A stretch of DNA of 64,000 nucleotides from Massalongia carnosa (GCA_965645245.1 OZ287070.1:2790001-2854000), one strand, 5' to 3'. Shown: positions 6,797 to 51,500, numbered from the stretch's first letter. Notes: generated by a model from the letters alone, not told the origin. Program-made: numbers and translations.

Positions 6797-7899
6797 TGTT
6801 GCGAATGCCAAGCCAGCTGGATCATATCTGATGTAATATGCTAATGCCTTCGCGTATTTTACTGATATGGGAATAGCTATATCTGAGAATTTCTGGTATC
6901 TTCGATGCTTAGAAATTCAGGTCTACAGACATTCGAGGAGAATCTCGAATGTTCTGTGATGAATATGTACATAGTTTTGAACCTAGTGAGGTTCGTGAAT
7001 AGAGGTGAACTCTTGATAATATGAATGTCTAGAAGGAAAGCTCTGATTGATTGATTGATTGATTGATTTATTCTTATTCCGATATGACACCGGCCGAAGG
7101 CCGGCCCATGCGGGCTGTCTATGTTTATCATACAAGGAAAACCCTTCTTGGGAATAAAAACCCCGTAGACTACGCACTACCTCCGGAGCCTCGCTGGCAA
7201 CAGGCTGCTCTCTGTGATCGTTTTTCTTTAGAATCCTTGACGAAAATGAGAAGTTATATCTCGTATAACATTTGCGATGCTAGTGAGAACTGTGTTAACA
7301 AGTTTGCTTTTATTATCCATGCAGTTAGCTTTTTCAGCATTTTCGACGAACGCGTAATCGTCCGGTAGTCGTGGGTGCCCAATTGTCTGAGCAGCTCATA
7401 TCTGCCTTCGATTAGTCTGCAGTGTAATATGATGTGTTTGGCAGTCTGTTTCTGCCAGCCACACGAGCAAGCTGGAGTCATAGCTCCCGGAACCCGACGA
7501 TTGAACAGGAAGTTTGCCAAACCTATTTTCTCAGTGCGGATTTGCGTGGTTAGCGCGCTTTCCGCCTTCATCAAGTTGTCATGAATCTTCAATCTAGTTC
7601 TGTTGAGTGGTCCGAGCTGTGCCGAAGGAAAGCTCTATCTCAGTAACTAATATTACATTATGTGCGGCGAGCTAGCCCAAACTAGGCCTAATAAGGCCAT
7701 GCTATCCCTTAGGCCCCTGAGCCACCACCTAAGATCATCACATAGGTTCACACATAGTATATAGCATCACTCCTACGCATAGCCTAGAGATTAGTCGCAA
7801 TTATCTGAATTATTTCATTCATAGAAGTTCTGCACTATCCAGCGACTTCTGGCACTCTGCCACCTATTTTCTGTGAATTGGGTCCATCATTCTCCATCC
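6797..7899 (+). mobile_element. Solo LTR of the Copia-1 family (cf. 36241-36571), interrupted at ~6960-7750 by a small LTR-like insert that itself carries the LINE
   Basis: 6797-6960 and ~7755-7899 align with the 36241-36560 LTR, differing mostly by transitions. Confidence 0.85.
7045..7623 (-). mobile_element. 5'-truncated Tad1/I-group LINE (ORF2 C-terminus with CCHC knuckle, 3' UTR stem-loop, (AATC)n tail)
   Basis: ORF 7254..7592 TQIRTEKIGLANFLF...CSCGWQKQTAKHIILHC; (GATT)n at 7045-7068 on plus; hairpin CCGGCC-GAA-GGCCGG ~7090-7105; 13-bp TSD GAAGGAAAGCTCT at 7032-7044 and 7624-7636. Confidence 0.92.
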
Positions 7900-22355: not shown

Positions 22356-23350
22356 CGAGGTGCTTATGGACAGTCCCCCCCCCGACCGTCCCCCCTGTGT
22401 AAATATTTGCTAGTAAACAGCCATTTCACTGCTTATCGCGTACAAGCTAGTAATGCAAGTGCCAACAGCACATTAAACTCTTTTCGGTTTGTTGCGAATG
22501 CTAAGCCAGCTAGATCATATCTGACGTAATATGCGAATGCCCTCGCGTATTTTACTGATACAGTCGACTGCAAAAGGTTGGTCGCGACCCTGAATTTGGG
22601 ACCACACATCAAATATTTACGCGCTAGTTCGTGTCAATCTCGTTATATTGCTACTAAGTATGTTTGGGCTATTGCTCACAGCCCCCGGCCTCGAGAGGGG
22701 GACTCGATAAGGGCCTTGCTGTCTACTAATGTAAGACCCTCTCGCAGGCCTTGGGCTGTGAACAGACTCCCTCTATCTAAGCGACAGAAGAACTGGAGTG
22801 GGTGGGTGGGAAAGAAAACGTTGCAAACAGTGCTATCAAAATGCTATGCTTTTTGATTGTCTTGAGATGTGAGATGATGAGGGATACCGTCTGGGACCTC
22901 CTCTTTATATATCTTCTTCCTATTCTCCTTGTCCTACTCTACCATCCCAGTATGCCCCATCAACGCGGCCCATAGCAAGGCATACACAAATCCGAAACCT
23001 AACTGTCGTCCGAAGGATCGATGCGGTGCTAAGATCTCTATGCCGTGCTGAGACATCCTTATGGTGCTGAGACATCTATGCCGTCCGAGAGATCCATGCG
23101 GTGCCGAAATCAAAGCGGGAGCTGTCTCGATTAACGACGCACTAGCTCTCAGCATAGCCGAACTAGCTAGTTCGTGTCAATCTCGTTATATTGCTACTAA
23201 GTATGTTTGGGCTATTGCTCACAGCCCCCGGCCTCGAGAGGGGGACTCGATAAGGGCCTTGCTGTCTACTAATGTAAGACCCTCTCGCAGGCCTTGGGCT
23301 GTGAACAGACTCCCAATCCCCAACATGGAACGACCCGCTTGCGGTGTTGT

Positions 23351-24400
23351 TCAGGACCTAGTGACTGGATTGTGAGGTTCCGTGGGTAATGTTTGAAGGC
23401 GTTTTGAGGCGTTAAGAAGGTAAGTGGGGTGGGTTTGTATGTAAAGCTTGTATGCGTCTGACTTCCATCTTCCTAGCATCTGAATCTCGTCTTCGGTGAG
23501 TCCTGCCCGTCGCGCTGTTGTTGCCGCACCTCTTCTGAACGAGTGGCCAGAGAAATTTCCTATATAGCCCAAGTTCCTTAAGGTGGATTTCATCGCTGTT
23601 GTAATGTAGTCTCGAGTGAAGGACTGACCGTTTTTAAAGAGTGGTGCGGCCGGAGAACTTGGGAATCGCCTATATAAATTTGTAAGAGAAGCTAGTGCAC
23701 AAGCAACATCGTTGGTAGCCGCAATTGTCAGTGTTATGCCTCGGCGAAAGGGATCGGTTTTGGAGACTGGTAGAGAGAGCTGTAGGTGATCTGCTTCGAA
23801 CCTAATAGATTTTCTGGTGAGGTGCCATTGATCAAAGCTTGGGTCTAGTACATCTTGCGTTGTGTAAGTAAATTCTCCGGCTCGTAAGAAGCCTGCAAAC
23901 GCTAAGCAGTACGCCGCATGTAAATTTGCGCCTTTCTCTTTCGTTTGATCAAGACGACTTAGCAATTTGATTAAGATCTCTCTAGTAATTGGTAACCTTT
24001 CACGTTTCTCGGCTTCACCGTTCTTTCGCTTTATGCCAGTAAGGATGCGATCTAACACCGGGTGATGAAATACGTCGAGATTACCGAGGCCCATATCTAT
24101 CTGGCATGATCTTATGCCCGTCAAGTAGCTCTTAATAGTTTTTGGTTGCAGGCGTCGTTCACCCAACGCTGCGATCCACGAAGACAGCGTCCGGATGTTG
24201 GCTGGAAATGGTGGCGCGTTGAGGTTTACCCTACAGTAAAGAACGTATCCCTTTCTTGCCGTTGTGTATAAAGATCTTGTCTTAGTGGCCAGGCCCCACC
24301 AGAGGTATCGTGCTGCGATTTCGTCTAGAGGTACCTCACTGTACCAAGATGGGGGTGGATCGCGTCCTATATTGCTGAGGGTAGAGCCTGAAACTGAGGG
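23351..24400 (-). CDS. Ngaro-2 ORF3, tyrosine recombinase (frame extends upstream of the listed 24166 start; exact start unknown)
   Basis: GFLRAGE, SKTDPF, GHSFRRGAAT, LGRWKSDAYKLY; upstream in-frame RYLWWGLATKTRSLYTTA. Confidence 0.93.
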   Translation of the reverse strand, partial: PSVSGSTLSNIGRDPPPSWYSEVPLDEIAARYLWWGLATKTRSLYTTARKGYVLYCRVNLNAPPFPANIRTLSSWIAALGERRLQPKTIKSYLTGIRSCQIDMGLGNLDVFHHPVLDRILTGIKRKNGEAEKRERLPITREILIKLLSRLDQTKEKGANLHAAYCLAFAGFLRAGEFTYTTQDVLDPSFDQWHLTRKSIRFEADHLQLSLPVSKTDPFRRGITLTIAATNDVACALASLTNLYRRFPSSPAAPLFKNGQSFTRDYITTAMKSTLRNLGYIGNFSGHSFRRGAATTARRAGLTEDEIQMLGRWKSDAYKLYIQTHPTYLLNASKRLQTLPTEPHNPVTRS

Positions 24401-25938
24401 ATTTTGTCAGCCAGTTTCTTCAAAAGTCCTCTAGACAAGAGATCAGCAATATAATTTTCTTTGGATGATATCCATCGCGCTTCTATCTGGATATCATGTA
24501 ATGCAGCTAGCATTGTAATTGCCCGCAGGGCATGCATTGCTTGGCCTCGTATAGAGGTTTTATTCACTCCTTTCGTGACAGCGTAGCTATCACAATAGAG
24601 GATTAAATGACTACCCTTGCATATAGGTAGCCACTTTTTCATAGCTTGAAGAATTGCTGTCATTTCTTTGACGTTGATATGCTTTGCCCTAAGGCGCGTA
24701 GTAAAGCGTGTGCTAAAAGCCTGCCGGGCTGCTTGTATATTATGCAAATTTTGATCCTCGCTGAGGATAAAGCCGCCCATACCATATGAGCCGGACGCAT
24801 CTGTCCATATTCTCATAGTATGTCTAGTACGGTTGAGCAGATGTATGCCATTCCATTTAGGTAGGAAATGATGCCACCATAGAAGATCAGCCCTCATGTC
24901 CTTGTTAAGATGGATTAGTTTAGAGGTTACGCTTGCCGTAGCATTGAAAAGACGGCGTAGAAAGGCTCTTCCTGGTTTTACCACTCTGGCTGCAAAGCAT
25001 AAGAATCCTAGAAGAGAGTCGAGTTCCTTCCTGGGTATGGCTTTTTTATTCAAAGCTGCCGATACTAGGGTCTTTGCTTTTAGTAACTTTTCGGAAGGCA
25101 AGCGTGCTTCCATGAGCGCGGTATCGATTTCAATGCCGAGGAAATCGCAAGTCGTTCCAGTTCTGTTCTTTTCGAGCTTGATTTTCATGCCAAGATCTTT
25201 ACAAATGTTGTGGAAAACTTGATCAAACTTTTCAGCATCTGGTCCGGTGCTGACTATTATTAAAAAATCATCCAAGTAATGAATAGCGTCTTTCCAACCA
25301 CAGTTGTACAATATCCAGTTGATACCCTTCGCGAACAGATCAAAAAGGAACGGCGACGTTCTCAGCCCAAAGGGTAAGTATTTATCCATCCAAAAGGAAT
25401 CCTGCCACTTGAAACCTAGTAACCACCAATCGCTTTTTGCTACTGGTATGTGGCGAAAAGCGTCCGCAAAGTCTCTTTTAATAAGAATACACCCTGGCCC
25501 GCGTTGCTCAATCAACCTAATGGCTTCGTCGAAGCTGGTATATTCCAGGGAGCCCCAGTCTTCCGGTATGTGGTCGTTGACTGAGCTACTCTCCGGATAC
25601 GATAGATGATGGATTCGCCGCCAACCACCGTTAGCCTTTGGTACAAGGCCTAATGGGGAACATATAAAGCAAGAAGGAATGTTGTTGACTTTCTCCAACC
25701 GATTACTAGCTATTTGTTCTTCGAGGTCATTGGTAAGAACTTCCGGTGCCTCATTTGCAGAGGCAAGATTATCGCTAATAATGAGTTGATGTGGTCCTGT
25801 ATAACCAACTTTGGCACCGTAGGTGATGATATCGATAATTGTTTGTGTGTAAGTGCGATCCGGGTGATTGGCCAAATGTTTCTCCCAGCCTTCTTTCTTC
25901 AATGGGCCCGGTGGGATCTTTGTTAGATTGTCCGTCAA
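24367..25938 (-). CDS. Ngaro-2 ORF2, reverse transcriptase + RNase H
   Basis: SPLGLVPKANGGWRRIHHLS, KRDFADAFRH, LPFGLRTSP, HYLDDF, WTDASG, YCDS, ENYIADLLSR. Confidence 0.95.
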   Translation of the reverse strand: MTDNLTKIPPGPLKKEGWEKHLANHPDRTYTQTIIDIITYGAKVGYTGPHQLIISDNLASANEAPEVLTNDLEEQIASNRLEKVNNIPSCFICSPLGLVPKANGGWRRIHHLSYPESSSVNDHIPEDWGSLEYTSFDEAIRLIEQRGPGCILIKRDFADAFRHIPVAKSDWWLLGFKWQDSFWMDKYLPFGLRTSPFLFDLFAKGINWILYNCGWKDAIHYLDDFLIIVSTGPDAEKFDQVFHNICKDLGMKIKLEKNRTGTTCDFLGIEIDTALMEARLPSEKLLKAKTLVSAALNKKAIPRKELDSLLGFLCFAARVVKPGRAFLRRLFNATASVTSKLIHLNKDMRADLLWWHHFLPKWNGIHLLNRTRHTMRIWTDASGSYGMGGFILSEDQNLHNIQAARQAFSTRFTTRLRAKHINVKEMTAILQAMKKWLPICKGSHLILYCDSYAVTKGVNKTSIRGQAMHALRAITMLAALHDIQIEARWISSKENYIADLLSRGLLKKLADKIPQFQALPSAI

Positions 25939-25983
25939 GGTGTATGGAAAGGACTCCGCGATGGATAAGAATGGGGCGGTTAG

Positions 25984-27138
25984 TCATTGCCTTGATGGGA
26001 GAGGCATCGAATTTGGGTTAGAGGGTTGATTTTTTCCATTTGTACAGTCCATCGCCCGATGTTGCTTTCCACATTTCTCACACACATGTTGGAATCTACA
26101 ATATACGGGACAGTCTTTGCCATAGTTGTATTTCTTACAGATAATCTTTTCGCCTGAGGTTTTGAAAGCCGTAGAATTATCGTCCGGTTTTGCAAAGTAA
26201 GCGGACGGTTTCCGCACAAGATGCCTTTCCAAGGAATGGTCCATTTCTTTCCATCCATCCGGGTTGTCAATCCCGCGAAAGGCTCGAGATTTGTGGAAAT
26301 TCAAATGAAAGATGCGAACCGAGTCCCAGGTGTAGAAGGCGTATAATGATAGAAGATGGTCCTGATAAGCCATGAAGGCTCTCATCAGGTTTATCTGGAG
26401 ACCGGGGTGTGCAAAGTGTAGTAGTATCATCCAATATACCCCGAGACATCGTATCAAATGAACTATCCCTTTGATATCTTTTAAGGAGCCATCTTCTTCT
26501 CTCGTGGCGATTTCCAGACCTTCTCCGAGTTTGACGTATCTAGAGTTGGTTTGAACTCCGTCGATGTCGGTACATAGCTTGGTAATGTTGATTGGGTCAA
26601 ACGTATTCTCGGAGATTTGCTTTATCCATATGGGCTTGATAGTGGGATATTCGTTCATAAGAGAAACAAAACGAGGATCCATACCTTCTGTATACAATGA
26701 GTTTGGTCGATGCGGTGGAAATGATGTCGGAAATAATAGGGAAGGCTGTTGAGCTGAGGCTACTGGCCCAGGGACCACGTCTCGGGCACGTGCTTGTTGG
26801 GTTTCGATATCCCGCCTAAGACTTACTCTTTCTCTTTCCTCGGCTTCCCTGCGGGACATTTCGCGTTGTGCTCTAAGTTCAATAATGTCATCAGGGGTGC
26901 GAGAACGGGTTTCCGGTATAACAGGCCCTTGTGAGGAGGAATTAAACGCTGAAGATGGAAGAGGAGAAGGTTGAGGATGGCTTTGAAGGGTTGCCGTGCT
27001 GTCTTGTGAGTCGGGTACTTCGACGTCTGGGTTGGAGTTGGCTAGATTTGCCCTAGCTCTAGTTCTAGTACGGGCTAGAGTGCTGCCTTGTGTGCGGGAG
27101 GTAGGCTTGGTGATTCTGTTGGAGATGCGGGTGGCCAT
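25984..27138 (-). CDS. Ngaro-2 ORF1, Gag-like with CCCH + CCHC fingers
   Basis: ICKKYNYGKDCPVYCRFQHVCEKCGKQHRAMDC; YTWDSVRIFHLNFH; open frame. Confidence 0.85.
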   Translation of the reverse strand: MATRISNRITKPTSRTQGSTLARTRTRARANLANSNPDVEVPDSQDSTATLQSHPQPSPLPSSAFNSSSQGPVIPETRSRTPDDIIELRAQREMSRREAEERERVSLRRDIETQQARARDVVPGPVASAQQPSLLFPTSFPPHRPNSLYTEGMDPRFVSLMNEYPTIKPIWIKQISENTFDPINITKLCTDIDGVQTNSRYVKLGEGLEIATREEDGSLKDIKGIVHLIRCLGVYWMILLHFAHPGLQINLMRAFMAYQDHLLSLYAFYTWDSVRIFHLNFHKSRAFRGIDNPDGWKEMDHSLERHLVRKPSAYFAKPDDNSTAFKTSGEKIICKKYNYGKDCPVYCRFQHVCEKCGKQHRAMDCTNGKNQPSNPNSMPLPSRQ

Positions 27139-27720
27139 TTTTGGAGGAGAGGGATTTGAATAGAGTAAATTTAAGTGTAGTGGTTGTATAAATTTGAATT
27201 GGGTGAAAAGAAAACGTTGCAAACAGTGCTATCAAAATGCTATGCTTTTTGATTGTCTTGAGATGTGAGATGATGAGGGATACCGTCTGGGACCTCCTCT
27301 TTATATATCTTCTTCCTATTCTCCTTGTCCTACTCTACCATCCCAGTATGCCCCATCAACGCGGCCCATAGCAAGGCATACACAAATCCGAAACCTAACT
27401 GTCGTCCGAAGGATCGATGCGGTGCTAAGATCTCTATGCCGTGCTGAGACATCCTTATGGTGCTGAGACATCTATGCCGTCCGAGAGATCCATGCGGTGC
27501 CGAAATCAAAGCGGGAGCTGTCTCGATTAACGACGCACTAGCTCTCAGCATAGCCGAACTAGAAAATGGCAAAATGCCGGCAAAAATCCGAATAACTACC
27601 CTCACCGCCTACATGCCAATGAAGTCGTACTACTGGTCAGTATTGAAGCGACTTGTAGATTAGTATATGTAGATGCCATTCCCCGTCTTTTTTCCCTCTC
27701 TCCTCTGCCATTTTCCCAAA

Positions 27721-28765
27721 ATGCCCCCCCCTCTCAGTGAGACCCTTCGTGAGACAATCACGCTTCGTTTTGTACGAGGTGACAGCAATAAGACAATTGC
27801 ATCTGTCACTGGTGTTGGCATCAGACAGATTCAACGAATGAGACGTAATTGGACTCATTTTGGAGATGTGGTTCTACCTCAATTGTCAATTGGACATCGC
27901 CCTCGTAAACTCAGTCAATTTCATGAGATTGAACTTCTGAAATATCTGGAGCAACGTCCGCATGCCTATCTGGATGAAATGTGCTGGTTCATTTGGGACG
28001 AATTTCAGATCTCTGCAGATGAGACCACCGTTGGTCGTGCCCTAAAAAGGCTTGGTTGGAATCGAAAGAAGGTGATCAAACAAGCAGCTCAAAGAAATCA
28101 AGGCCTTCGAGATGGATGGATGCAGAGACTCGGAGAATGGACTGCAGAGCAATTGATCTTTTTGGACGAAAGTGCAGCTTGCGAAAGAACCGGTTATTTC
28201 CTATCTCATCTTTCATCCCATCTTCGTCATTTTTCTGACTTTCTGACTAGGTGACCGACGATACGGATGGGCTCAGGCAGGCGTCCCTCCAATCATGATT
28301 CAGGATTTGAAAAGGTCAAAGAGATGGAGCATTCTTCCTGCATTTACCGTCGATGGATATATAGCTTGGGAGGTGCATCAGGGCTCCATAACTGCCGAAA
28401 TTTTCAACGACTTCGTTCGAAATCAGGTTCTTCCTCAGACGACTGCCAATGGAGGTCCTAGATCTGTTTTAGTACTAGATAATGCCAGCATTCATTGGAA
28501 TCAGGAGCTTATTCAGATGTGCGAGACAGCCAACGTCACCTTGGCACGACTACCTCCTTATTCTCCAGATTTCAATCCAATTGAAACGTTGTTTGCATTG
28601 CTAAAGGCATGGATTCGACGGAATGGAGAAATGAGTCTTTCGTACACGGAGGGGTATGGGGGATTCGGACAATTTCTTCGGGATGCAGTCAAAGATCTGA
28701 GAATGGGAGACCCGGGAAATTTATTTAGATTGGCTGGCATTCAGTATCCCACCATTTCAATCTGA
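27721..28765 (+). CDS. Tc1-like DD34E transposase, apparently intact (328 aa, intron 28193-28250)
   Basis: HTH IASVTGVGIRQIQRMRRNW, ADETTVGRALKRLGW; FLDES; spliced ERTG-DRRYGW; VLDNASIH-x-LPPYSPDFNPIE with 34 residues between D and E. Confidence 0.93.
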
Positions 28766-28780
28766 TTAGATACATAGTAT

Positions 28781-30948
28781 CTAATCCTCATCCTCATCTT
28801 TGGCATAATCGTATTCTAGACTATGCGTCTCATCTTCCTCAATTGTATCTCTCACTCCAGATCCTACCTCCCCGCCCCCGTCCACCTCCCCATCCTCCAT
28901 CCCCTTATCCACCCGAGTGACTGCCTGAGTGACCGCCTGAGTGGCCATTTGCGATGTCGGTAAATGGCGTTGACGCCGAGGGGGAGGCGGGGGCATTTGC
29001 TGAGATATCTGTCGAGACATTTGTCGAGACATTTGCAAAGGCATTTGCAAAGGCATTTGCCGAGACATTTCTCTTCCAAATTTACTGACGTCTCGCGCCA
29101 GTTGAATCCCGATTCCCGGAGGAATTCCTAGTTCCTGCCAGAACGTCTGATGCTCGATGCCTTTCAAGGATTGAACGGTCATCAGATCGTACCCACCTTC
29201 CATCAATCGATCGCAGGCGTTGGTGAGCACTCCTTTCAAATGAGGCTTCATTTGAACGAGCCAACTGACATAGTCTTCCAGATCTTCTTCCACTGGACTG
29301 CTGCGGGCGACGGAGGGGAGAGGGAGAAATCGACTCACGCTTCGACTGCTTCTGGATGATCTCGAATCTCTCCAATCCAACGGCGTTTCCTCACGGGCTC
29401 GTCTCGAGTCAGGTAATGTAGAAGGAGCATACTGAGAAGGATAAAATGCCGAGGGGGGAAATGCCGAGTGAGGAAATGCCGAGGGGAATGCCGAGGGAAA
29501 TGTCGAGGGGAATGCCAATGACGAGGGGGGAAATGTCGAGTGGGGGTTTTGGTACGAGTGGTGTTGATACATGGGATGTTGATAAATGGAATGCCCACCT
29601 CCAAAGGGCATTTCCTGAGACGAGGTTTCAGTCTTTTTCTTACCTTTATTCAGGGAGAATAAATTCTCTCTGATCTTCGGTGGAGGTGTTCGAGAATCAA
29701 CGCCTGAAATTCCATCATCTAGTGCTTTATTCCAGGTCACGAAATGAGCACTGTTGAGAGGATAATGCTGATTCTTCGTCTCATCATTCCAACAGTACTG
29801 TCCGAAATTCCTACATGCGCGTTTTTCACAGAGATGCAGACTTTGCAATTCGGACATTCTTTCGGCCGTCATGCCTTGCAACATGGCTCGTTCCTCCATC
29901 TCTTTTTGCAGCTTCATGGTCGCGGTTCCCAATTTCTTGGTGGCGACAGCTGTGGCAGCAGCAATAGGATCATCGGGAGGAATGACGCCATCTTTGGTAC
30001 GACTGAAGTTGAAAATAAGATCAACCGCGAAGCTTTTCTTTCGAATGCTGCTGTCTTCTAAATGAATTAGAACCTCCTCAATGGGCTGCCAGGATTCGAT
30101 CAACATGAGAGCTGATTTTTCATGCGGTTTGATTCCATTCCATAACACGGTCGCTTTGATATCAACCAAATGACAAGCATACATTTTGGAATTCGCATAC
30201 GTCTCGGCTTTCAAACTCATGTCCCCGGTGTAGCTTCTCAAAAAGAATCTTTTCGACGTAGTTGAATTGACTTCGTATGGAATCACCGTCTCGAAAACGA
30301 CGTGCTTCTCATACGACATCTTCACATTTAGTAGATATTTGATTACCATCGGAGGCAGTGGCGAAGGGGATAAACGGGAGGGTTCCTTTCTTCTTGGTTT
30401 TCTAGACTTCTTACTGACAATCGAGTTACTAGGCACATTGAGATCTTCGACATCATCTTCGGCATCATCTTCGGAATCATCTTCGGCATCATCTTCGGCA
30501 TCATCTTCGGCATCTACAGCTTTCATCGCGTTCTCCTTTCTCCACTGACCCTGCCACCTCTGCTTCTCGTCTTCATCCGTCCAGTCGTCGGAGGAATCCT
30601 CCGTAATGACAAGGGGACTATAATAATTCGATTCGAAAGTCTTTGACTGCTGAGGCTGGACCTTTGACTTGGGAGGGGCCTTTGGCTTGGGAGGGACCTT
30701 TAGCTTGGGAGGGGCCTTTGGCTTGAGGGGGGCCTTTGGCTTGAAGGGGGGCTTTGACTTGAGGGGAGGCTTTGGCTTGGGAGGGGCCGACGTCGATTCC
30801 GGCGAGGCTTCATCGATGCCGGCGGCGACAATGGCTCTGCTCTCGGCCCTCCCAAAGTCAGTTTGATCCTCTTACCTTTGAAAGGCTCTTTTCCAGCCGG
30901 GGGGGGGCCGGAATTTGATCTTTTTGCTCTCGGTTCACGAAGTTTCAT
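28781..30948 (-). CDS. Accessory ORF2 of the Tc1-like element, unknown function (~720 aa; one frameshift or unrecognised intron near 30845-30875)
   Basis: 581-aa ORF 28781..30526 is open upstream to ~30870 (KPKAPP repeats); probable ATG 30948 (MKLREPRAKR) just inside the right TIR; Cys/His motif HLCEKRACRNFGQYCW...HYPL...W; C-terminal helical FWQELGIPPGIGIQL. Confidence 0.78.
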
Positions 30949-31488
30949 ATCTGAGATAAAAAATGGGGAATGGCAGAGGGGGGAGGGAAAAAAGACGGGG
31001 AATGGCATCTACATATACTAATCTACAAATCGCTTCAATACTGACCAGTAGTATGACTTCATTGGCACGTAGGCGGTGAGGGTAGTTTTCAGATTTTTGC
31101 TTGATGTGTGGTCCCAAATTCAGGGTCGCGACCAACCTTTTGCAGTCGATTGTATGGGAATGGTTACATCTGAGAATTTCTGGTATCTTCGATGCTTAGA
31201 AATTCAGGTCTATAGACGTTCGAGGAGAATCTCGAATATTCTGTGATCATGTGTATATAACATCACTCCTACGCATAGCTTAGAGATCAGTCGCAATAAT
31301 CTGAATTATTTCATTCATAGAAGTTCTGTACTATCCAGAGACTTCTGGCACTCTGCCACCTATTTTCTGTGCATTGGGTCCATCATTCTCCATCCATCCC
31401 TCCTATTTTAAACAGGTTATGAGCCCGGTTAGCCTATAGTGCTGCCGAGTGATTTTCTTGTGTCGGTTTCGAGGTTATACATAACGAG

Positions 31489-34400
31489 ATGGCGGACCAA
31501 CGCGACTCCACAGACCCTAATACACCAGCAAGTATGACCAGCCCTTCCCCTCCTTCCTCTTCATCTTCTGGCCCCGATGGGCAGTATACAAAAGCGGTAA
31601 GGAAAGGGGATATAAAGGTAGAGCCCAAGCTAGGTGCCGATAATTATTTAACCTGGGCGGAAGAGATGTGGATTCAGCTTAAATCTATGAGAGTCCTCAA
31701 GTTAGTAGAAGGAAAAACCCCTCAACCAGATACAGTAACCCGACCAAAAGACTTTGACGAATGGGACCACGATGATACCAACACATTGAAATGGATACGG
31801 GCCAACTGTGAGAAAAGCCAATTGACTCACCTTCGAAACAAAACAACATCCAAAGCCGCCTGGGACGCTCTAAAGAAGGTCCATGGAGTCCACGCCAGAG
31901 GAAGAATCAACTATTTATTGAAGCGATTCTATACCTACAAGGCTGGATCCAGCGACTCTATCGATGATATAGCAGGGGCCCTTGAGACCTTACGAGTCCA
32001 GATTGCGGACATAAAATCGGAGTTTGAGCCTCACGATGCGTTGATGGCCATAGCCCTGATGAGTGCCGTGGAGGACCCTGCATTTGATACAACAAAGCTT
32101 TTATTGGAACGGGAACCCGAGCTTACCTTGGAAGCAACTAAGGAGGCCTTGAAAGCGACGGAGCAGCGACTAAAATTCGAAAAGGATGACTCTGTCGAGG
32201 ATGCCCATCGAGCGGATGCAAAAAAGGGTAAAGGGCCACCAAAGAAGTGCGACCATTGCGGGAAACTTGGACATATCCGAATCTATTGCTGGAGCTGGCT
32301 CGATGACACCGACGAAGGCCAGGAATGGGAATGCACCCATCCTGAGCAACGGAGGAAACCGAAGTCCAAATCCGAAACATCAAAACCTGTACCCAAATTG
32401 AAATCACGGAGTACCACTAGGCCTACCTCCACGAGCAATACCAGTTCTTCCAACTTCAGTGGCCGAAGCAAAGGCACTGCCCGGCCGGCCAATGAAGAGG
32501 ACTTTGACGATGGTGCCAGTGAGGATGAGGGGTGGATGGCCGTGGATATAAAAGAGGAGGTTATTGATGAGAAAGTTGAAAAATTAGAAGAAATTTTTGA
32601 AGTCCGTGAAGGTGCAGAGGATAAAACTAGTGGCTGGATGCTAGACTCTGGTGCTTCACGTCATATGACCTATATGCGAAATATCTTCACGAAATTCGAA
32701 TACCACCGCACCCCAATTCGAATTGCTAATGGCCAGAGGCTTTGGAGCAAGGGTAAGGGTGATATTTCTGTGGATATCGATGGTGTTGCCATTCGCATGA
32801 CCGACGTTTTATACGTACCCCAACTGGATGCAAATCTACTGTCTATTTCGGCATTAAACAAAAAGGGGTTAAATGTCTTGTTTCATGGAGAAGGTGTGGA
32901 GATCCTGCGGAAGGGTACCTCAGTGGCCAGCGGTTTTCTTAGAGGACGTACGTATTTCTTGCGGACCTCTCAGGTTGCCTTACAGGCATTCGCGGAAATC
33001 AGCGAAAATATCGAGGAAGCCAACCCCGAAGATCCTAAATCGTCGAACAAGCCTACAATAACAGCAAGAGATTGCACGCGAGAAAAATCGGTATCACCTG
33101 TAGGTCAAGAAAGGCCAGAAGAGCGTGAATACAGGCTGTGGCACGCCCGAATGGGTCACCCCAGCCCAAAACGACTCCAGGATTTATACCGCTATGCGTC
33201 TGGAATAACTTCCTTTTCACCAACTGTTACACAACTTTCATGTTCTATCTGCAACTTTACCAAGTTAACTCGAGTGGTCAGTCACGAGCCGTTTTCGAAA
33301 ACAGTCCGGCCATTGGCCAGGATTCACACGGATATCTGGGGCCCCTATCGTACGGCTAGCCTCGGAGGCCATTCGTACTTTATTTCATTGATTGATGACT
33401 TTACACGGAAGTCCTGGCTAATTCTCCTTAAAAACCGACGAACCATTTATGGAGCTATCAAAGAGTGGATCAATGTCGTTGAAAGAGAAAAGAATCAGCA
33501 GGTAATCAAATTCCGATGCGACAATGCTAAGGAGTACAAGAAATTCATGGAACTTATTCGACCCGATGGCATTCGCGCTGAACCCACTACACCGTATACT
33601 CCAGAACAGAATGGAGTTGCGGAACGATATAACCGAACAATCGTTCAAATGATTAGGTCCATGCTCGTATGGGCGAAATTGCCTCATTCCTTCTGGGGAG
33701 AAGCAGAAATGACTGCTAACTATCTCAGAAACCTCCTCCCTACCGCCAAAGTTAATCAGTCACCCGAAGAAAAATGGACGCAGCAAAACCGGCATCAGCC
33801 ATCTACGCACCTTTGGCTGCTTGGTTCACGTTCATATCCCGAAGGAAAATCGATCCAAGCTGGATAAAGTATCCTGGCAAGGAATTTTCGTCGGATATCA
33901 TCTTCAAACCAATATCGCATTTATAATCCAAAAACGAGCAAGGTAGAATGGCATACTTCAATTAAGTTCCTAGAAAATACACCCGGCGGGATCATTCTAG
34001 GAGGAGCAAAACCAAATGAGGATCGCGAGTTATTCGTACAGTCCGGCGTCACTAATGATGCTGACGACAATAGTACTGATAACGAGGATGACACAAATAA
34101 ACCTGATTCTGATCAAGTGGGAGCGCCTAAGGGTGTTCAAAATCAGGTTAGAGACGAAAATTCAGGAGGGGATTCAGGATCAAATCCTGAAAATCAGCAA
34201 GTTATCACTGATTCATCCCCTAATGCTTATCAGCGACCAGATGGTTCAACATTCCGGTCGCAAAATCATAATCGAAACTCTTCCACCCCTACGAACCCTT
34301 CCACTTCCGTATCTTCATCAACCATCAAGTCTTCTTCTTCCACTATACAAACCTCTGCTAATAAGCCTACTCGTCGATCAACGCGGGAGCGAAAGCCATT

Positions 34401-36060
34401 CGATAAGTACGGCTTCGATAAAGCACACGGGCATATAGCTCGGAAAGCAGACATGGACACAAACCTAGACCAGAGTGGTCACAAGCAAGTTTATCAAACC
34501 CCCAAGCTATCCGAACCCCGCTCCTATAAAGAAGCCATCAAATGCATTGACTGGCGTAAATGGCTAATAGCAATAGACGAGGAGCTTTGTGCCCTCATTG
34601 CTAATGGCACATGGGAGTATTGTAAACGGCCGCATGGCAGAAATATCGTGACGTCCAAATGGGTATTCAAGATAAAATATACGGTCAACAATTTCATAGA
34701 CCGCTACAAGGCCCGCCTAGTTGCACGAGGATATACACAAATATTCGGCCTAGATTACGAGGAGACCTTTTCACCCACACTCCGTCAGGAATCTTTGCGG
34801 ATGCTTTTGTCGCTCGCAGCATATTTCGGGTTTGAAATCGAGAAAATGGATGTTCCGAATGCCTATCTTAAAGCGGATCTAGAAGAAATTATTTACATGG
34901 AGATGCCCGAAGGCCTCATGCCACCACCAGGCTATGAAGACTGCGTATTACGACTACGGAAGGGCCTTTACGGATTGAAGCAATCCGGACGAGAGTGGAA
35001 CAAAAGAATATCTAAATTCCTACGTTCTATTGGCTATAAGACCCTCACAGGCGATAATTGCGTCTTTGTCAACCAAACCTCGCACGTAATCATCGCGTTG
35101 TACGTAGATGATTTACTAATTTTCTCAAAGAGCAAGACAGCGATCAAAGATGTCAAAAAGCTATTAAATCGTGAGTACAAAATGAAAGACCTAGGGCCAG
35201 CACAGTACGTGTTGGGTATTCGCATTCGACGTGAAGGAAAACGGGTTTTCCTCGATCAATCCAACTACATCAAGAACTTCCTTCGCGATTACCAGATGGA
35301 TAATGCCAATCCAGTACTAACACCATTAGACGGGAAAGAAAGCCTTACACCTGCAACGGCTGACGAGCCCAGAACCAATCAATTAGAATATCAGAAGCGT
35401 ATTGGCTGTGTCATGTACGCTATGGTAAGCACGAGGCCAGACCTCGCTTTTGCAGTTGGAAAACTCAGTCAGTACACGCATGATCCAGCCACGAGGCATC
35501 GAACAGCCCCTGACCGAGTCCTCAAATATCTCAAAGGGACAGCCGACCTAGCCCTCGTATACGACCATAACCGTAACGGTGATCTCATTAGCTTTGCGGA
35601 TGCCGCATACGGCGATGACGTCAATGACCGCAAGTCAACCTACGGGCATACAATGTTATTGGGCAATGGGGCAGTGATTTGGGCAAGCAAGAAGCAACGA
35701 TCAGTGGTTACGTCAACAATGGAGGCGGAATATTCATCCATGTGCCAAGCAGGCAAGGATATCGTATGGGTGACAAGGTGGATGAATGAATTGGGATTTG
35801 GCAAGCATATGAACTTCCCAATCAAGCTGAACGGTGATAATCAGGGAACCCTCGACTTGATCAGAAACCCCGAGCATCATAGCCGATCAAAACACATAGA
35901 CATCCAACTCCATTACCTTCGCGAAGTCATTAACGATGGCTATGCTTCAACTGGTCACGTATCCACACACGAGATGATAGCTGATATATTCACCAAGCCC
36001 TTGGGAGCAACCATGTTCAAAGAACTACGAGCCAAGCTTGGTGTGCAAGAGGTGGAATAA
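31489..36060 (+). pseudogene. Copia-1 Gag-Pol (Gag CCHC, protease, GAG-pre-integrase, integrase, RT, RNase H) with frameshifts near 33790-33900
   Basis: CDHCGKLGHIRIYC, WMLDSGASRHM, LWHARMGH, HTDIWGP, FRCDNAKEY, PEQNGVAER, YKARLVARG, LYVDDLL, FADAAY, SKHIDI, ADIFTK. Confidence 0.95.
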
Positions 36061-36706
36061 GAAAAGGGGAACACAGGCTCAGTGGGAGCTAATGGACCAA
36101 ATCAGATTGCACAAAACAGGTCCAACCCAAATTCAAATTGCATACGGAAGGTGAATTGACATAGATTGATAAACGGTTTAGGAGTTAGGGATATAGGTAT
36201 TTTTTCTGTTAAAATTTCTCAGCTGACTTTGCAGTGGGAGTGTTGCGAATGCCAAGCCAGCTAGATCATATCTGACGTAATATGCGAATGCCCTCGCGTA
36301 TTTTACTGATATGGGAATGGTTACATCTGAGAATTTCTGGTATCTTCGATGCTTAGAAATTCAGGTCTATAGACGTTCGAGGAGAATCTCGAATATTCTG
36401 TGATCATGTGTATATAACATCACTCCTACGCATAGCTTAGAGATCAGTCGCAATAATCTGAATTATTTCATTCATAGAAGTTCTGTACTATCCAGAGACT
36501 TCTGGCACTCTGCCACCTATTTTCTGTGCATTGGATCCATCATTCTCCATCCATCCCTCCTATTTTAAACACGGTTTAAATCGTATGACGTGTTATTGCT
36601 ACTAATAATTACCCTACTCGGTCTGATAAAGCATACCCTCACCCTCACCCTCTCTTACCATTTGCCCTTGCCTATAAGACAATCAGTGTAGAAAATATGT
36701 GATGAG

Positions 36707-44627: not shown

Positions 44628-47600
44628 TCAATTTTCTACCGTCTCCATCGCATCAGCACGTCTGCTAGGAATCACTACTGCCATTGGCCAGCCAGGTGGA
44701 ATCATGGACTGTCGGTCGTCCTCGTCCCCCCCATGGTTTATAGTCGGCCCCTGACTATTACGTTGCTCAGGTTCTTCTATCGGAGGTAAGTTAATATTTT
44801 GCCGAGCATGAAATGGTTTCAGTCGATTTCCTGCAAAGGTTCCAGCTAATAGGGTGCCGTCTAGTTCACATAGTTTGTAAGTTCCCTTATCAACAATTGT
44901 TTGTTGAATTTTATATGGTCCTAACCACCTGAAAGTTAGTTTGCCTGTGTGCTGATTGTCTAATTTAGTGTCGTGCAAAAGAATTAATTGACCCTCGGTG
45001 AGTTCAATTGATCTCAGATTGTTCAGAGTGTCAAAGGTCTCTTTGCCTTCCATTCTTTGTCTTTGCAGGAATAAAGCTGTCTCTTCCATGTCTTCATCCC
45101 TTCGCTGTATTTGTCTCGCACGCATAGCTAGCAATTCGTCTGTTGTATGAACTTCATTCCATGGTAATATTCTCCATGTTGGAATTTCCAGTTCAATTGG
45201 TAGAACAGCCTCATTGCCGCTATTCAGATAGAAAGGTGTGTTGCCGGTGCTAGCACGAACTGTTGTCCGGTCGGCCCATAGTACTGCAGGAAGATTATCA
45301 ACCCATTTGCCCATGCCTCCATTTGTCATTTTGGATAATGCTTGAACAACTGGCCGATGTCCCCGTTCTATCATGCCATTGGCTTGCGGATGATAGGCAG
45401 AAACAACTACTCTTTTGATACCATATCGATTTGCTAATTCGATAACAGCATCTTTGTTTTCTGGTCCACCATCAAAAATCAGTTTTCCGAAGCACCCATG
45501 TCTGCATATAACGTCTTCCCACAAGAATCTCGCGACATTCTGAGCGGTAGCTTTTCCTAGTGCTCTACCCTCGACCCATCCGGAAAAGTCATCTTTGGCC
45601 ATAACAATATAGTGCTTGCCTCGACAAGCTGGCATGTGTACCACGTCTAAGCCAACCTTCTGCCACATGAAGGTAACCCATGTCGGATGAAGTGCTTCCT
45701 CGAGCCTAGTGGGGTCACGTTTCTGACATTCCTCGCAGGACCGAACATAGCCTTTTACATCATCGTGCAATTGTTCCCACCAGTACCTGTCTGCTATGCG
45801 TCTGTATGTGCCCTCTCTGCCTCTATGTCCACTTTCGTCATGTAGCTGTTTCAATATTTCCAACTTCCGCTCATCAGAGTCTATCACTCGCCTGGAAGGT
45901 ACGTTCTTGCTGTTTCGTCTATAAAGATGGCCATCTTGTACTCGATAGCGCAAGGCCTCGCTCTTAAACGCCCTAAAGTCTTTGGGGTTTAGTCCAACCG
46001 GCTTTTGTAGTGATGTTAGAAATGCAGCGATTCTCTCGGACTTATCACTATATCCGGCCTTTAGCACTTTTTCGTCTGGCACCTCGTCTGCGGAGTTAAC
46101 GGAAATTGGACAGGCCCTTAGTGAATTCAGTTCGGCATCTATGAAGTCGTCTATGTCTTGCTCCTGCTGTTCGGCCCGAATTTCTTCCTCAGTATGAGGT
46201 CGTCTAGACAGTCCATCTGCTGCCGTATGTTTTCGGCCAGCAACATGTTTGACCTCGAAGTCAAACAGTCGTATCCATGCTATCCATCGGACTATCAGAG
46301 CACCAGGCAAATCGGTACAAGCTCCATTCAATTGCGCCACTAGGACGTTGGCATCTGTCTCCAACACAAAGTGAACTCCATATAGCCAGTGCCTTGTCTT
46401 TTTCAATGCCTTTAGAACGCCTCGACACTCTCGCTTGGTTGCATCATATCGCTGTTCCACCTCGCTCCATACTCCGCTTTCGTACCGAATGGGGTGACGC
46501 TTGCCATCAAAGATTTGCATCAGTACAGCGCCCCATCCTTTCAAACTCGCATCCACAGCCAATATTGTTGTAATGTGCAAAGTCACCCGGCTGATGCCTA
46601 GTAAAGTGTTCAGAGTCACATAGTACCGCATTGGGATTAGTGCGTTGGTAAGAACATTAGGCAACACATAACGACCTCGAGAAGCACCGCAAAACTTCTA
46701 TGAACATTCCCATCGAGTCATAAATTGGATATGAGTCAATCACCAATCTTAGATTTCTAGGAAGCAGGAAGGTGAGTCATAGGGAGAACGGTTTTCGGCA
46801 TGTTTTTCTATCTATATAAACACGGTCCTTAGATAGGTAGATAAAAAAATCAATCGTTTCAAAAGTGAGCTTTTTACTATGCCAGCAGAGCTTCAATTAC
46901 AATAAATATGATAAGTCCAGCTAGCTCGCTATAGTCAATGGTCTTTAGTGCTGGCGGAGATGTCAGAGCTATCTTCAGCAAGTCCATTGCCTCGGTTTGT
47001 TCCATGCCCCATACAAAAGCAGTATCTTTCTTCAGCAGACGATATATTGGTTCAGCAACAATGGCAAAGTCCAATATCCATATGCGATAGTACACACACA
47101 CACCTATAAAAGCACGAGCGGAAGAAGCGTCGGTGCATATCGGCCACTCTAGAATTTTGATAACCTTAGCGGTGTCCGGATGTCTACCATCGGAGTCGGT
47201 CACAAATCCTACTATCTTCAGACCGGCCATGCAAAATTGCGACTTTTCTCCGGAGATAGTGCATCCAGCCCTTTCTATGTCCGCGAGTACCCCATCTAGC
47301 CACATGAGATGTTCAAGCACGTACTTTCTGATGCCCGGTGCCACTTCTTCACCACCATAATCAGTCTTCGGCCCCTTCACTCCGATGTCATCAAGGAAAG
47401 GTTTAGCACGGTTCGGAATGTGGTCCTGCAGTATCTTTGTCACTACCCGTACGAACTGTGCAACCGAATTGGTAGCTCCCATTGGTATAGATGTCATTCG
47501 CAATAGTCCTATTGGTGTCATGAAGGCGGTCATGTCTCGACTATGAACATCGAGTTCCATTTGGTTATATCCTGAAAACAAGTCGATCAAGGAAGCGATG

Positions 47601-48550: not shown

Positions 48551-51500
48551 TTCTCCTCTCGGCCCTCCGGAAACAGGTCCTCTGCAGTACGATTTGTTAA
48601 ATGAACAGTTGACGGCATAATGTTGAAATTACTACGGAGATGACTGCTTATAGCAGTCATGGCAGCCTGCAGGGCTGAGCTAGATCTAATGGGGCTAAGC
48701 GAGTATTCCAACACTCCCCTTCGAGCGTGGCTCCCCTTTCGCCTCCAAAATTGAAACTATCCAGCTTTTATCACTCCCCTTGCGAAGTGATTCATCCAGC
48801 TGTATCCGATTCGCTCCCCTTGCGGAACGAATCTAGCTCCCTCTGACTCCATTTTCCCTAAGCACGTAGTTCTTTCTTATGTCTTTTGTTGTCCTGCTTT
48901 GTAGCCTCATTAAACCCATAACCATCTCTCGAAACGTAGCTTTTGTGAGTGTATGGGTGGATGGGAAGAGTACTATGGACGTGTTTTGTTGATGGCCTGA
49001 GCAGGGCTTTTCTCGATGTCTCTGTTAGACATTTTCCCGCAGACCATTGACGTTGGTGGCCTGATCGCAGGGCTTTTATCTCCCCTTGCTGATCTGACCA
49101 GTAATGCAAGATGTGAAGTCTTCGAGGCACCGCCCATTGTAGATGTCCTCCTCAGCACGTTTCGTACGTACACCACTTTCGATGACGTTTCCGCTTCGTT
49201 TCCGCTTCGTTTCTCATCCCTTTCGATGTCGTTTCCGCTTCGTTTTCGCGCTTTCCACGTCTGAACTTTCACCTCATCATCTTCTTGATACGACATGATA
49301 GTACGTAGTCTATGCATGAAGGATGCCGTCGGAGGGGCGCAAAGCACAAACCCGGGACTCATAACCTGTTAAATAAACAGTTGACGGCATAATGTTGAAA
49401 TTACTACGGAGATGACTGCTTATAGCAGTCATGGCAGCCTGCAGGGCTGAGCTAGATCTAATGGGGCTAAGCGAGTATTCCAACACGATTTTTACTAGTT
49501 GAGTCAGAAGTTGCGGTGAATTTGGCAGCTCGGTTTCCCTCCTCCGCATGTATAGTACATTCCACCTCGTTATTCTGATAATCCATATCGACACGCATCT
49601 GATGAAGGTAAGGTTGGCCCAACACTAATTGATGATCCGCAGCGTCGATGACAAATATGTGATTGACCGACACTATTCCGCCAATATTAACCTCAACGTC
49701 CTCACATACACCTAGGAATTCTTTCCGGTCTCCAGTATGAGAAATAAGATTGATATTGGGACAGGGTCGCATAGCTAGGCCTTCACGCTTGGCCACGTTG
49801 TACGTCATCACATTCACTTCAGCGCCGGAGTCTAGGAGAGACTTGTACCTGTTGCCATCGCCGATCTGCACTTTGGCCTTTGGTGTCGACCTCGTGTAGG
49901 CCCTGCGAAGTCGCGGGTCCCGAATGCCAATTGAACTAATTTTTACCGTTGGACCCTCTGCCTTTTCCGGTTCGGCATTCCGTGTCATCTTATTGACCAC
50001 CGGTTTAAACATAGGCATCATGGCCATCAGATTTCCATAGGTCAGTCCTCCAGCACCAGGCAAAGGTATTTGCAAACAACGACTCTGTATTAGGTCTATG
50101 TTGAACTCATGTTTCGCGATCCGTAGAAACTCTTCGGTGCCCATCTGTTCTATCGCAGACCGAACCTCCTTTCGGATGGGGCCTGTCGGAACCCCGACCC
50201 CATGTTTCTTTCCTTTGCCGCCGCCGCTGCTGCTGCGGAGGTGGCTAGCTGGGCCCGCCTCCGTCATGGTCACATCTTCTTCCAAAGGGTCGGCGAATGT
50301 AACACGAGGTTCAGTCGCATGAGATTTATCAGTTACAATTGAGCTAGGTGGCCTTGATTGGTCAGAGTTGTCACTCCGACGTTCTACCGAGGCAGGAACC
50401 GGGTTCCAACTGCCATATCTGGGTGCTTTCGGTACTGCGAACTTGTCCTCGCGTTCAGCCCTGCGTTTCAGAATTCGCTTAGCTGGCTCCCTCCAGCTCT
50501 CCTCGACAGGCTTCTGTTGTTCCGTTCTAGCTGAATTGACAGAGGTGGTGTCGATGATGGTCACCTCAGGGTCCCATTCTTCATCAGATGAATATTCGTC
50601 CGCGCTATCCTCGCCAATTCGAACTGAGTGGACATCAGCACTTTGGTCCGCATGACTGAATTGATTGGCCAGCATTTTTGCGCGCCTAATGGACTCCTTC
50701 TGTGTCACCCCGGGCACATGCCGAATGGGATTGGAATATGTGCCCATCGGTCCTAGACATAACAAACCTCGCTCATTCAGATGAATAACACCATTCCGCT
50801 GGTCGGCATCAAACTCCGGGCAGTTCCTCCGCCTATCATGGGTCTCCTTCTCTCCACAGTATGTGCAGGAATCCTCCCCTCCATACTGACGGTCATTCGG
50901 TTTCTGGCCATCATAAGGTGCCTGTCTACCAGGTGACTGTGAACGGTTCCGAGTCTGCTGACTGTTCTGATTGGCTGGACGGGCCTGAGTTCCCGCCATC
51001 AGGACCAGCGCATCAAACCTTTCGGTTAAACCGGCAATAGCCTTCTCCGTGGACTTCGACAAACTAACGGTCGAACTGTCTGCAACTGGTGGGGTAAGTG
51101 ACTTCATGATATTTTCATGACCATCCAGCACTATCTTCCTATCAAATTGATCGGCTAGGGCACTATATTTGTCAGTAACACTCTTCTCAGTCCGCATCAC
51201 CTCTTTATATTTGAGCCTCGCCTCCACTAGTCCCAATGTCTTCTTCACCAATCCATCAAAGTCCTTCATCACATTATCGTCAAAATCAACACCTCGGCGG
51301 AAGAACAACTCCTCGCGTACGTCCTTGGGAAGGCCCTGTAGGAACCACTGATTGCGTGTATAAATATCTAGCTTTTCCTGACCAATTAGGACTTTGGATA
51401 TGGCCCCGAACTTTCGGCAAAAGTTTCGCACGTCATCTTCACTAGTACGTTCCTTGTCCTTGTATGACTCCAAAAACGCTCGAGAATTCACCTGCTGAAT

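Follow-up and report, generated by a model that had tools for sequence, protein, structure and literature searches.

A Tc1-like DD34E transposon with a second, convergent gene between its terminal inverted repeats in Massalongia carnosa

In a stretch of 64,000 nt from Massalongia carnosa (GCA_965645245.1 OZ287070.1:2790001-2854000; hereafter, the window), we identified a Tc1-like transposon at positions 22561-31152, which carries, in addition to its transposase gene, a second, larger gene convergent to it, termed ORF2 (open reading frame 2). We read it as a member of an autonomous Tc1-like DD34E lineage with two convergent genes between terminal inverted repeats (TIRs) of ~185-213 nt, in which ORF2 encodes a cofactor of transposition, and we give this reading as a whole a probability of roughly 0.55. 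The interpretation as a two-component Tc1 family is supported for the subfamily to which the window copy belongs, and plausible for the wider family of ORF2 relatives.

Insertion site and gene content of the element

Read from the sequence, the transposon begins with CAGT, ends with ATTG and is flanked on either side by TA (22559-22560 and 31153-31154), i.e., TA-CAGTCGACTG...CAGTCGATTG-TA. Within the 64-kb window, there are exactly two occurrences of its terminal 30-mer, in inverted orientation at 22560 and 31153 (none expected, 100 shuffles). The element sits in the 5′ long terminal repeat (LTR) of a copia-like retrotransposon (22490-36571), the ORFs of which match Retrotran_gag_2, rve and RVT_2 in Pfam. 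The LTRs of this host element are 331 bp long (TG...CA) and start with TGTTGCGAATGC at 22490 and 36241, and a 5-bp target duplication, CGGTT, could be read by eye at both retrotransposon ends. When the two parts of the 5′ LTR are aligned with the uninterrupted 3′ LTR, the latter reveals a paralogous empty site with a single TA, ...GTATTTTACTGA-TA-TGGGAATGG (the left flank is also given as ...TTTTACTGA-TA-TGGGAATGG), which identifies the two TAs that border the transposon as target-site duplication. Because the intact 3′ LTR shows an empty site with only one TA, the whole block 22561-31152 is one TA-duplicating insertion. The two LTRs differ by one mismatch in their left part and by none in their right part (a 262-nt direct repeat, 31153-31414 and 36310-36571, 100% identical); they are nearly identical and, therefore, the copia-like and the Tc1-like insertions are both recent. 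Thus, the transposon jumped as a single piece into a TA within the 5′ LTR of a copia-like element that is itself very young, in agreement with the initial annotation of this DNA, which had described one TA-flanked element with the same limits. The copy was subsequently disabled twice, by insertion of a 4.9-kb retroelement into the left TIR and by a 1-nt deletion in ORF2. Devoid of the nested insert, the transposon measures ~3.65 kb, and this copy is not degraded by repeat-induced point mutation (RIP).

The left TIR is split by the nested retroelement into an outer part (22561-22622, plus strand), which starts with CAGTCGACTG and was detected as a 55-nt inverted repeat of 98% identity (I2), and an inner part (27562-27712, plus strand), detected as a 130-nt inverted repeat of 92% identity (I1); its limits follow from alignment with the right arm and, for the outer part, also from contigs of sequencing runs. 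The right TIR (30969-31152, minus strand) has 184 nt. With the nested insert removed, 179 out of 186 aligned positions are identical between the two arms, and there are 29 gapped columns, chiefly one 28-nt stretch that is present in the left arm and missing from the right one. The N-terminus of P0026, which stems from another copy, corresponds to translated TIR sequence on the ORF2 side including the 28-nt stretch (compared by eye), and the gap is thus due to a deletion in the right arm of the window copy. TIR length is accordingly 184-213 nt, with termini CAGTCGAC and CAATCGAC. The limits of the TIR, initially given as ~190 bp long, are redrawn as above; the nested insertion, formerly placed at ~22613-27577, extends from 22623 to 27561, so that its earlier limits were 10-17 bp off.

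The transposase gene is on the plus strand. Exon 1 (27721-28192) encodes the putative DNA-binding part, of helix-turn-helix (HTH) type, and D149, the first catalytic residue; a 58-nt GT...AG intron (28193-28250) follows, the removal of which restores a single frame; exon 2 (28251-28765) encodes D234 and E269 and ends with the stop codon TGA at 28763-28765. The spliced gene has 328 codons plus stop and no internal stop codons. Exon 2 matches DDE_3 (PF13358; E 5.2e-27) and 34 residues separate the second D of the triad D149/D234/E269 from the E, i.e., DD34E, so that the Tc1/DD34E assignment made at the outset stands. In exon 1, HTH_33 scores 26.2 bits against a cut-off of 25 (E 6.1e-6), with HTH_32 and HTH_23 below their cut-offs. 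Relatives of exon 2 are abundant: of 945 candidates scored, 887 reach E<=1e-3. Three features of the Tc1 (DD34E) family are thus present (TA duplication, TIRs, DDE_3 with DD34E spacing), and one that is typical without being strictly defining is absent: instead of a single gene, there is a second, convergent one within the TIRs.

This second gene occupies the minus strand. The body of ORF2 (28781-30871), recognised by ORF scanning, homologues and structure models, is open over 696 codons, with the first ATG at 30526 (581 amino acids, aa) and the stop codon TAG at 28781-28783. As previously noted, 15 bp (28766-28780) separate the two convergent stop codons. The 5′ end of the gene (30700-30948, minus strand) begins with the ATG at 30948 (MKLREPRAKR...KRIKLTLGGPRA) and is out of frame with the body through a 1-nt deletion at 30838/30839, which severs the first 37 codons from the rest and is possibly an assembly error; the frame opened by this ATG halts after 82 codons. 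In the sequencing runs X1, X2 and X3, which come from three studies, one extra G behind 30838 joins the frames of start and body. Likewise, P0279, P0299 and P0026, encoded by other copies, read ...LGGPRARAIVAAGIDE... without a break. P0284, a member of a diverged subfamily, starts with MKLRGPRSKRANTGPP...KIKLTLAGPKG, matching MKLREPRAKRSNSGPP...KRIKLTLGGPRA of the window, and the start MKLR.PR.KR is common to both subfamilies. Since other copies read through and the start of P0284 is homologous, we consider the ATG at 30948 to be the family start, from which an intact protein of ~722 aa is predicted. The convergent gene of ~720 aa originally proposed is therefore interrupted in this copy, and it is in other copies that start and body are joined in one frame. 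Both start codons had been placed within ~15 bp of the inner TIR ends; this is right for the transposase ATG (27721; 8 bp), and the ORF2 ATG is 20 bp away. An intron linking the ATG at 30948 to the body was considered and dismissed: the only GT...AG candidate seen by eye has 27 nt and would leave the frame unchanged, and a 1-nt indel explains the break.

Each TIR also contains an ATG of its own (27673 and 31008), followed by an identical encoded peptide, MPFPVFFPS.... In this copy, these codons are in frame with the transposase (left) and with the start of ORF2 (right); the frame to ORF2 is kept in P0279 and not in P0026. They could be alternative starts or be there by chance.

Copies, relatives and predicted structure of ORF2

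Pieces of ORF2 with 82-99% identity to the copy in the window were found on at least 15 large contigs of 0.23-3.8 Mb, designated here by their lengths in nt. Three of these (3628741, 2436195, 2300223) hold two distinct pieces; the others are 3767895, 2849552, 2812471, 2260588, 2110715, 2104751, 1893471, 1685442, 1633228, 1303322, 1271358 and 232205. ORF2 is therefore not confined to this copy; the initial annotation had named such confinement as an outcome that would speak against its proposal. Most of the pieces are partial (39-536 aa), and P0299 and P0295 share one frameshift, a pattern that, as far as the sequences tell, is that of decaying transposon copies. A second ORF2 subfamily, 50-54% identical, has eight members on eight contigs, and contig 3767895 holds both subfamilies.

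Several observations bear on the link between these copies and the transposase. Among the clusters examined, there are 23 distinct ORF2 3′ halves versus 25 distinct transposase exon-2 ORFs, the latter 86-99% identical, in six clusters and on contigs of 18 sizes. The second ORF2 subfamily is present on all five named contigs of the transposase cluster with 88% identity. Record 2 of the X1 contigs (2,511 nt; 13 other letters) spans 27669-30170 and, thus, joins TIR end, transposase and ORF2 in another sample. In P0279 and P0026, i.e., two further copies, the frame passes from translated TIR straight into ORF2, and the repeat scan of the window revealed no flanking repeats or target duplication belonging to ORF2 itself. 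Together with the single TA-duplicating insertion, these junctions uphold the earlier view that ORF2 is part of the mobile unit and that no flanking DNA was captured. We consider it highly probable that ORF2 is a true gene of the element; the copies support the view that it is neither captured flanking DNA nor a single-copy host gene, and, by the evidence of their sequences, it was amplified with the element and kept in two subfamilies.

A scan of 1.84 billion representatives yielded 130 clusters of ORF2 homologues at E<=1e-3, 48 at 1e-10 and five at 1e-30. The window ORF2 has no Pfam family, and no Pfam family is common to any two of the 130 relatives. Ten members, full-length at 438-806 aa and 23-54% identical, have in common an invariant C-x4-C-x6-C-x8-H, followed by W, SSP and a C-terminal W...G. 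Near the N-terminus, a short motif was seen, [RK][LIFV]x[LIV]..P, the pattern of which was chosen after inspection of the sequences. When the first 150 residues of 13 members are scanned, it is found 11 times, in nine of these members (0.57 expected, maximum of four in 500 shuffles). The two subfamilies agree best in the C-terminal domain (77% identity), followed by the middle part (58%), the linker (43%) and an acidic stretch (25%), so that constraint on ORF2 appears to act domain by domain. Certain relatives are distinguished from their closest intact counterpart almost exclusively by amino acid changes for which C-to-T or G-to-A transitions can account, and these are directional: 27 forward, 0 reverse and 3 other from P0010 to P0053; 39 forward, 2 reverse and 21 other from P0002 to P0008. 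This has the signature of RIP-like damage, and RIP targets repeated DNA. Several distant full-length members are located on contigs of 3.4-4.1 kb, near the size of the element, which is suggestive only. ORF2 relative P0028 (619 aa) and transposase relative P0172 (57% identical) are both on a European Nucleotide Archive (ENA) contig of 8,756 nt, a match for which we roughly estimate, by reasoning, a chance of 1/50 to 1/100. P0020 is a hypothetical protein from a metagenome-assembled genome of a lichen fungus, according to its source record. Basidiomycete clusters in the Atlas resemble ORF2 with scores of 0.90-0.91 and are regarded as leads only.

Other searches added nothing to the family. The scans of viral_contigs and genome_contigs yielded no relative, and the hidden Markov model A1 recognised ORF2 alone among 302 open frames (>=60 codons) in the window. 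A search of a word-indexed database with the A1 profile gave four hits among 8,000 candidates, swamped by low-complexity words. One metagenome locus from the A2 scan (L001; 33 residues, E 5e-4) was discarded as spurious, as it was hit in tblastn by none of 284 stored proteins.

The model of the 581-aa ORF2 has a mean pLDDT (predicted local distance difference test) of 71, with three confident parts (581-aa numbering). The first (residues ~55-180; pLDDT 85-97) resembles PB1 and other beta-grasp domains: the best match is 4mjs_A (Z 6.9, root-mean-square deviation 3.1, 85 aligned residues), with 2npt_A at Z 6.3, the matched section being residues 62-177; in Foldseek, its best E is 0.0096, to other beta-grasp proteins. 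The second (residues ~220-300; pLDDT 93-97) includes the zinc knuckle. The third (residues ~410-490; pLDDT 96-98) resembles SAM or SAM-like helix-hairpin-helix (HhH) domains over residues 410-491, with 3k1r_B, 5jti_A and 8faz_C (a chain of the BCDX2 complex), all at Z 6.2, as matches, and further ones in 8gj9_B (RAD51C N-terminal domain; Z 5.9) and 1u9l_B (NusA; Z 5.5); a SAM cluster of the Atlas scores 0.78. The C-terminal domain conserves GIxPGIGxxLA, in which we presume to recognise the helix-hairpin-helix consensus. Sequence searches of the PDB with A1 and A7 gave nothing below E 0.0066, Foldseek against PDB and BFVD had no match at E<=0.001, and the Atlas search with residues 55-300, in which named clusters only were considered, returned no usable match. 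Going by the models, the predicted protein lacks an apparent catalytic domain and would not be an enzyme.

Some variation amongst ORF2 copies was also seen. The gene includes three in-frame tandem repeat arrays, at 28992-29085 (period 12 nt), 30431-30526 (period 12 nt) and 30640-30806 (period 18 nt), encoding SRQM-, DAED- and PKPKAP-like repeats. Copy numbers vary, with 12-nt indels at 29030 and 30476 in the runs, where a 21-nt insertion is also found near 29616-29626. In P0001, the ORF2 stop codon is lost, and five additional codons (YILCI) extend the frame through the spacer to end against the transposase stop (by eye). The ends of P0255 and P0029, ORF2-related proteins from other copies, match parts of other transposons in the window, 46546-46668, 48595-48711 and 49367-49483, at 83-95%: retroelements of the window have apparently inserted into ORF2 copies elsewhere.

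The nested retroelement and its surroundings

The 4.9-kb sequence in the left TIR (22623-27561, minus strand) is a later insertion and not part of the transposon. In contigs from four out of four runs (X1, X2, X3, X6), the outer TIR is followed by 10 other letters and then directly by 27562, from which the limits of the insert follow; stretches without contig cover in X6 and X1 were left uninterpreted. One run that holds the element is a lichen metagenome. Two split direct repeats were detected in the insert, one 300 nt long (27207-27506 and 22811-23110), the other 149 nt (23166-23314 and 22623-22771). Its minus-strand ORFs include a gag-like one and match RVT_1 together with RT_RNaseH as well as, weakly, Phage_integrase (E 1.7e-4, which does not reach the cut-off of Pfam). 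We take the repeat order, A1-ORFs-B1-A2-B2, to be that of Ngaro/PAT-like elements, and classify the insert as a tyrosine-recombinase retroelement of this type. In X2 and X3, contig depth at one of its ends (27207-27561) is 5-6 times that of the Tc1 element, and contigs that extend past 27562 run into sequence resembling its other end, suggesting that the retroelement forms tandem or circular junctions in the runs.

The window as a whole is a transposon nest. Outside the element, 16 long ORFs match Pfam families, and these are transposon genes (gypsy, copia, reverse transcriptase, chromo-integrase) with the exception of one DUF659, a match that stays below the Pfam cut-off and may be hAT-associated. 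We saw no ordinary host gene among the Pfam-scanned long ORFs of the window. The start motif of the copia-like LTR occurs a third time, at 6797.

The role of ORF2 and its counterparts in known transposons

ORF2 is probably a nuclear, non-catalytic accessory protein composed of interaction modules: a basic N-terminal motif, a PB1-like beta-grasp domain, a Cys3His knuckle, a linker rich in Pro and Tyr, and a SAM-like, HhH-type C-terminal domain. Most likely, it would self-associate and assist the transposase by binding DNA or chromatin. This might involve bridging or loading of the two long TIRs, or attachment of the complex to its target, a role for which the second protein of PIF/Harbinger, of En/Spm or of MuDR offers an analogy. 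We tentatively favour a cofactor of this bridging, loading or tethering kind, at somewhat less than even odds. A wider proposition, which we find rather doubtful, is that a widespread fungal two-component Tc1-like lineage relies on ORF2 as the obligatory partner of the transposase, a protein that would polymerise through its PB1-like and SAM-like parts, bind zinc and DNA, and assemble the synaptic complex on the TIRs or steer insertion into other repeats as safe havens. If true, ORF2 would be a transposon-encoded factor for targeting or assembly such as is not known from IS630-Tc1-mariner (ITm) elements, with a zinc-knuckle module that has no solved counterpart.

A number of results weigh against the two-gene, cofactor reading. 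The window copy itself has a frameshifted ORF2 and a split left TIR, and no full-length ORF2 of its subfamily was seen, the longest having 536 and 475 aa. Outside the window, the two genes occur side by side only in the X1 contig, possibly this very locus as present in a different strain, and the remaining linkage rests on equal contig sizes and copy counts. Contig sizes are near-paired, so that two assemblies may be mixed, in which case the five-out-of-five co-occurrence would be insignificant. As the depth of ORF2 contigs in X1-X3 equals that of the neighbouring copia interior, the variant is not high-copy in these runs. With regard to the protein, all fold matches have Z<8, values that can mean just a common arrangement; Pfam PB1 was found neither in ORF2 nor in the 130 relatives, SAM_1 in only one of the 130 (E 0.0044), and the Cys3His zinc knuckle modelled alone (pLDDT 89) had no fold match (best Z 4.9; Foldseek E >1).

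The ancestral element might instead have captured a host gene from a PB1-like/zinc-knuckle/SAM-like family, which has hitch-hiked ever since and plays no part in transposition; any constraint on it would then stem from a former function in the host or from some selfish side benefit. Broken ORFs prevail among the copies seen, with one frameshift common to P0299 and P0295, and the family has spread anyway; ORF2 has diverged far more than the transposase between the presumed subfamilies (50% versus 88% identity); and window and run copies differ in ORF2 by six synonymous and six non-synonymous changes, three of them beside an indel, too few for a dN/dS ratio (non-synonymous over synonymous substitution rates). 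The Atlas look-alikes, being large clusters of "hypothetical proteins", could moreover include host genes. Such a passenger is at odds with the exact fit of ORF2 between TIR (20 bp) and transposase stop (15 bp), with a start codon and N-terminal motif kept in both subfamilies, and with conservation that differs by domain (77% versus 25%). As expected of transposon genes, the relatives found elsewhere are multi-copy or fragmentary, or bear RIP-like mutations, and no member resembled a plain host gene when viewed by sequence, without genomic context. On balance, we consider a hitch-hiking host gene unlikely, albeit the strongest competitor of the cofactor.

That ORF2 is directed against the host, as an anti-silencing or copy-number-control factor, e.g., a decoy or a chromatin-modulating scaffold, would suit its interaction modules with long, disordered, fast-evolving linkers and its quick divergence relative to the transposase; it appears improbable, and similarity to known silencing suppressors was not found with Pfam, Foldseek or fold matching. 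The dense packing of nested transposons in the window might also suggest that ORF2 is a separate element or gene lying inside the transposon by chance, or a chance open frame. This is very hard to reconcile with the data: no repeats or target duplication bound ORF2 alone, the TIR-to-ORF2 junction recurs in other copies, and ORF2 has homologues in 130 clusters, invariant Cys and His residues, and domains modelled with confidence.

That a second, larger gene was retained while subfamilies diverged suggests that the transposase alone is insufficient for success in these fungal genomes; the element would most likely depend on assistance in pairing its TIRs, in gaining access to chromatin or in choosing targets, or in coping with genome defence. 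The window copy is unusually readable, since it is not degraded by RIP, was inserted recently and has its empty site in the same window, and it provides clean gene models for experiments and for the annotation of the many "hypothetical proteins" of the family.

Tc1/mariner elements are the textbook minimal transposons, one gene between two repeats, and the basis of tools such as Sleeping Beauty. The element described here agrees with canonical Tc1 (DD34E) elements in its TA duplication, CAGT termini, DDE_3 transposase with a putative HTH part, DD34E signature and TIRs of ~200 nt (long TIRs are presumably also a trait of Sleeping Beauty, Minos, Tc3 and fungal impala). It differs from them in that canonical elements encode the transposase only, whereas here, the second and larger convergent gene makes up ~60% of the element. 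Non-catalytic second proteins encoded by the element itself are known from PIF/Harbinger (a Myb-like protein), MuDR (mudrA/mudrB) and En/Spm (TnpA). MuDR, which serves us as a working analogy, is alike in its convergent layout with each gene beginning beside a TIR; all three belong to other transposase superfamilies with other target duplications. PIF/Harbinger elements combine a Myb/SANT-like second protein with a 3-bp TAA/TTA duplication, whereas neither ORF2 nor its 130 relatives have a Myb/SANT Pfam domain and the duplication here is TA.

No fungal Tc1 element with this ORF2 family is described in the parts of the full-text literature accessible to us (Repbase and Dfam lying outside this scope), nor one with such a second gene in the portions seen of PMC7325037, PMC5751038, PMC4112212, PMC10512250 and PMC7386202. 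The initial suggestion that this may be an undescribed two-component fungal Tc1 family is weakened as far as novelty is concerned: Dici1 and Dici2, multi-gene fungal ITm elements from the yeast Diutina catenulata and the closest case in print, were published in 2026, with different extra genes. According to the sections available, they have three coding sequences (CDSs), which the authors call unusual for the superfamily, along with a TA duplication and CAGTCGGT termini (PMC13469147). The CDSs specify an orphan protein of 143-146 aa, a central transposase of 473-477 aa and a transposase relic of 347-398 aa with a homeodomain, and the TIRs are 8 or 33 bp (PMC13469147). In that description, Dici elements resemble the one from Massalongia carnosa in being fungal ITm elements with TA duplication, a DD34E transposase, more than one CDS and CAGTCGGT termini (here, CAGTCGAC). 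They are set apart by the two convergent genes, 328-aa transposase and 184-213-nt TIRs found here; transposases of the Dici clade, next to Gambol and Hiker, have 432-478 aa by the same account, a range that excludes 328 aa. The Pfam scan detected no IS630, homeodomain or DDE signal in the window ORF2, unlike the relic encoded by the third Dici CDS.

DNA transposons may carry additional ORFs, and, in the portion of the source at hand, the ciliate elements TBE and Tec are multi-ORF cases with DD34E (PMC7325037). As portrayed there, TBE1 and Tec share with the window element a DD34E transposase, extra ORFs, including one on the opposite strand, and long TIRs; they differ in that their extra ORFs include a zinc-finger protein and a site-specific recombinase, in Tec TIRs of ~700 bp and in their ciliate hosts (PMC7325037).

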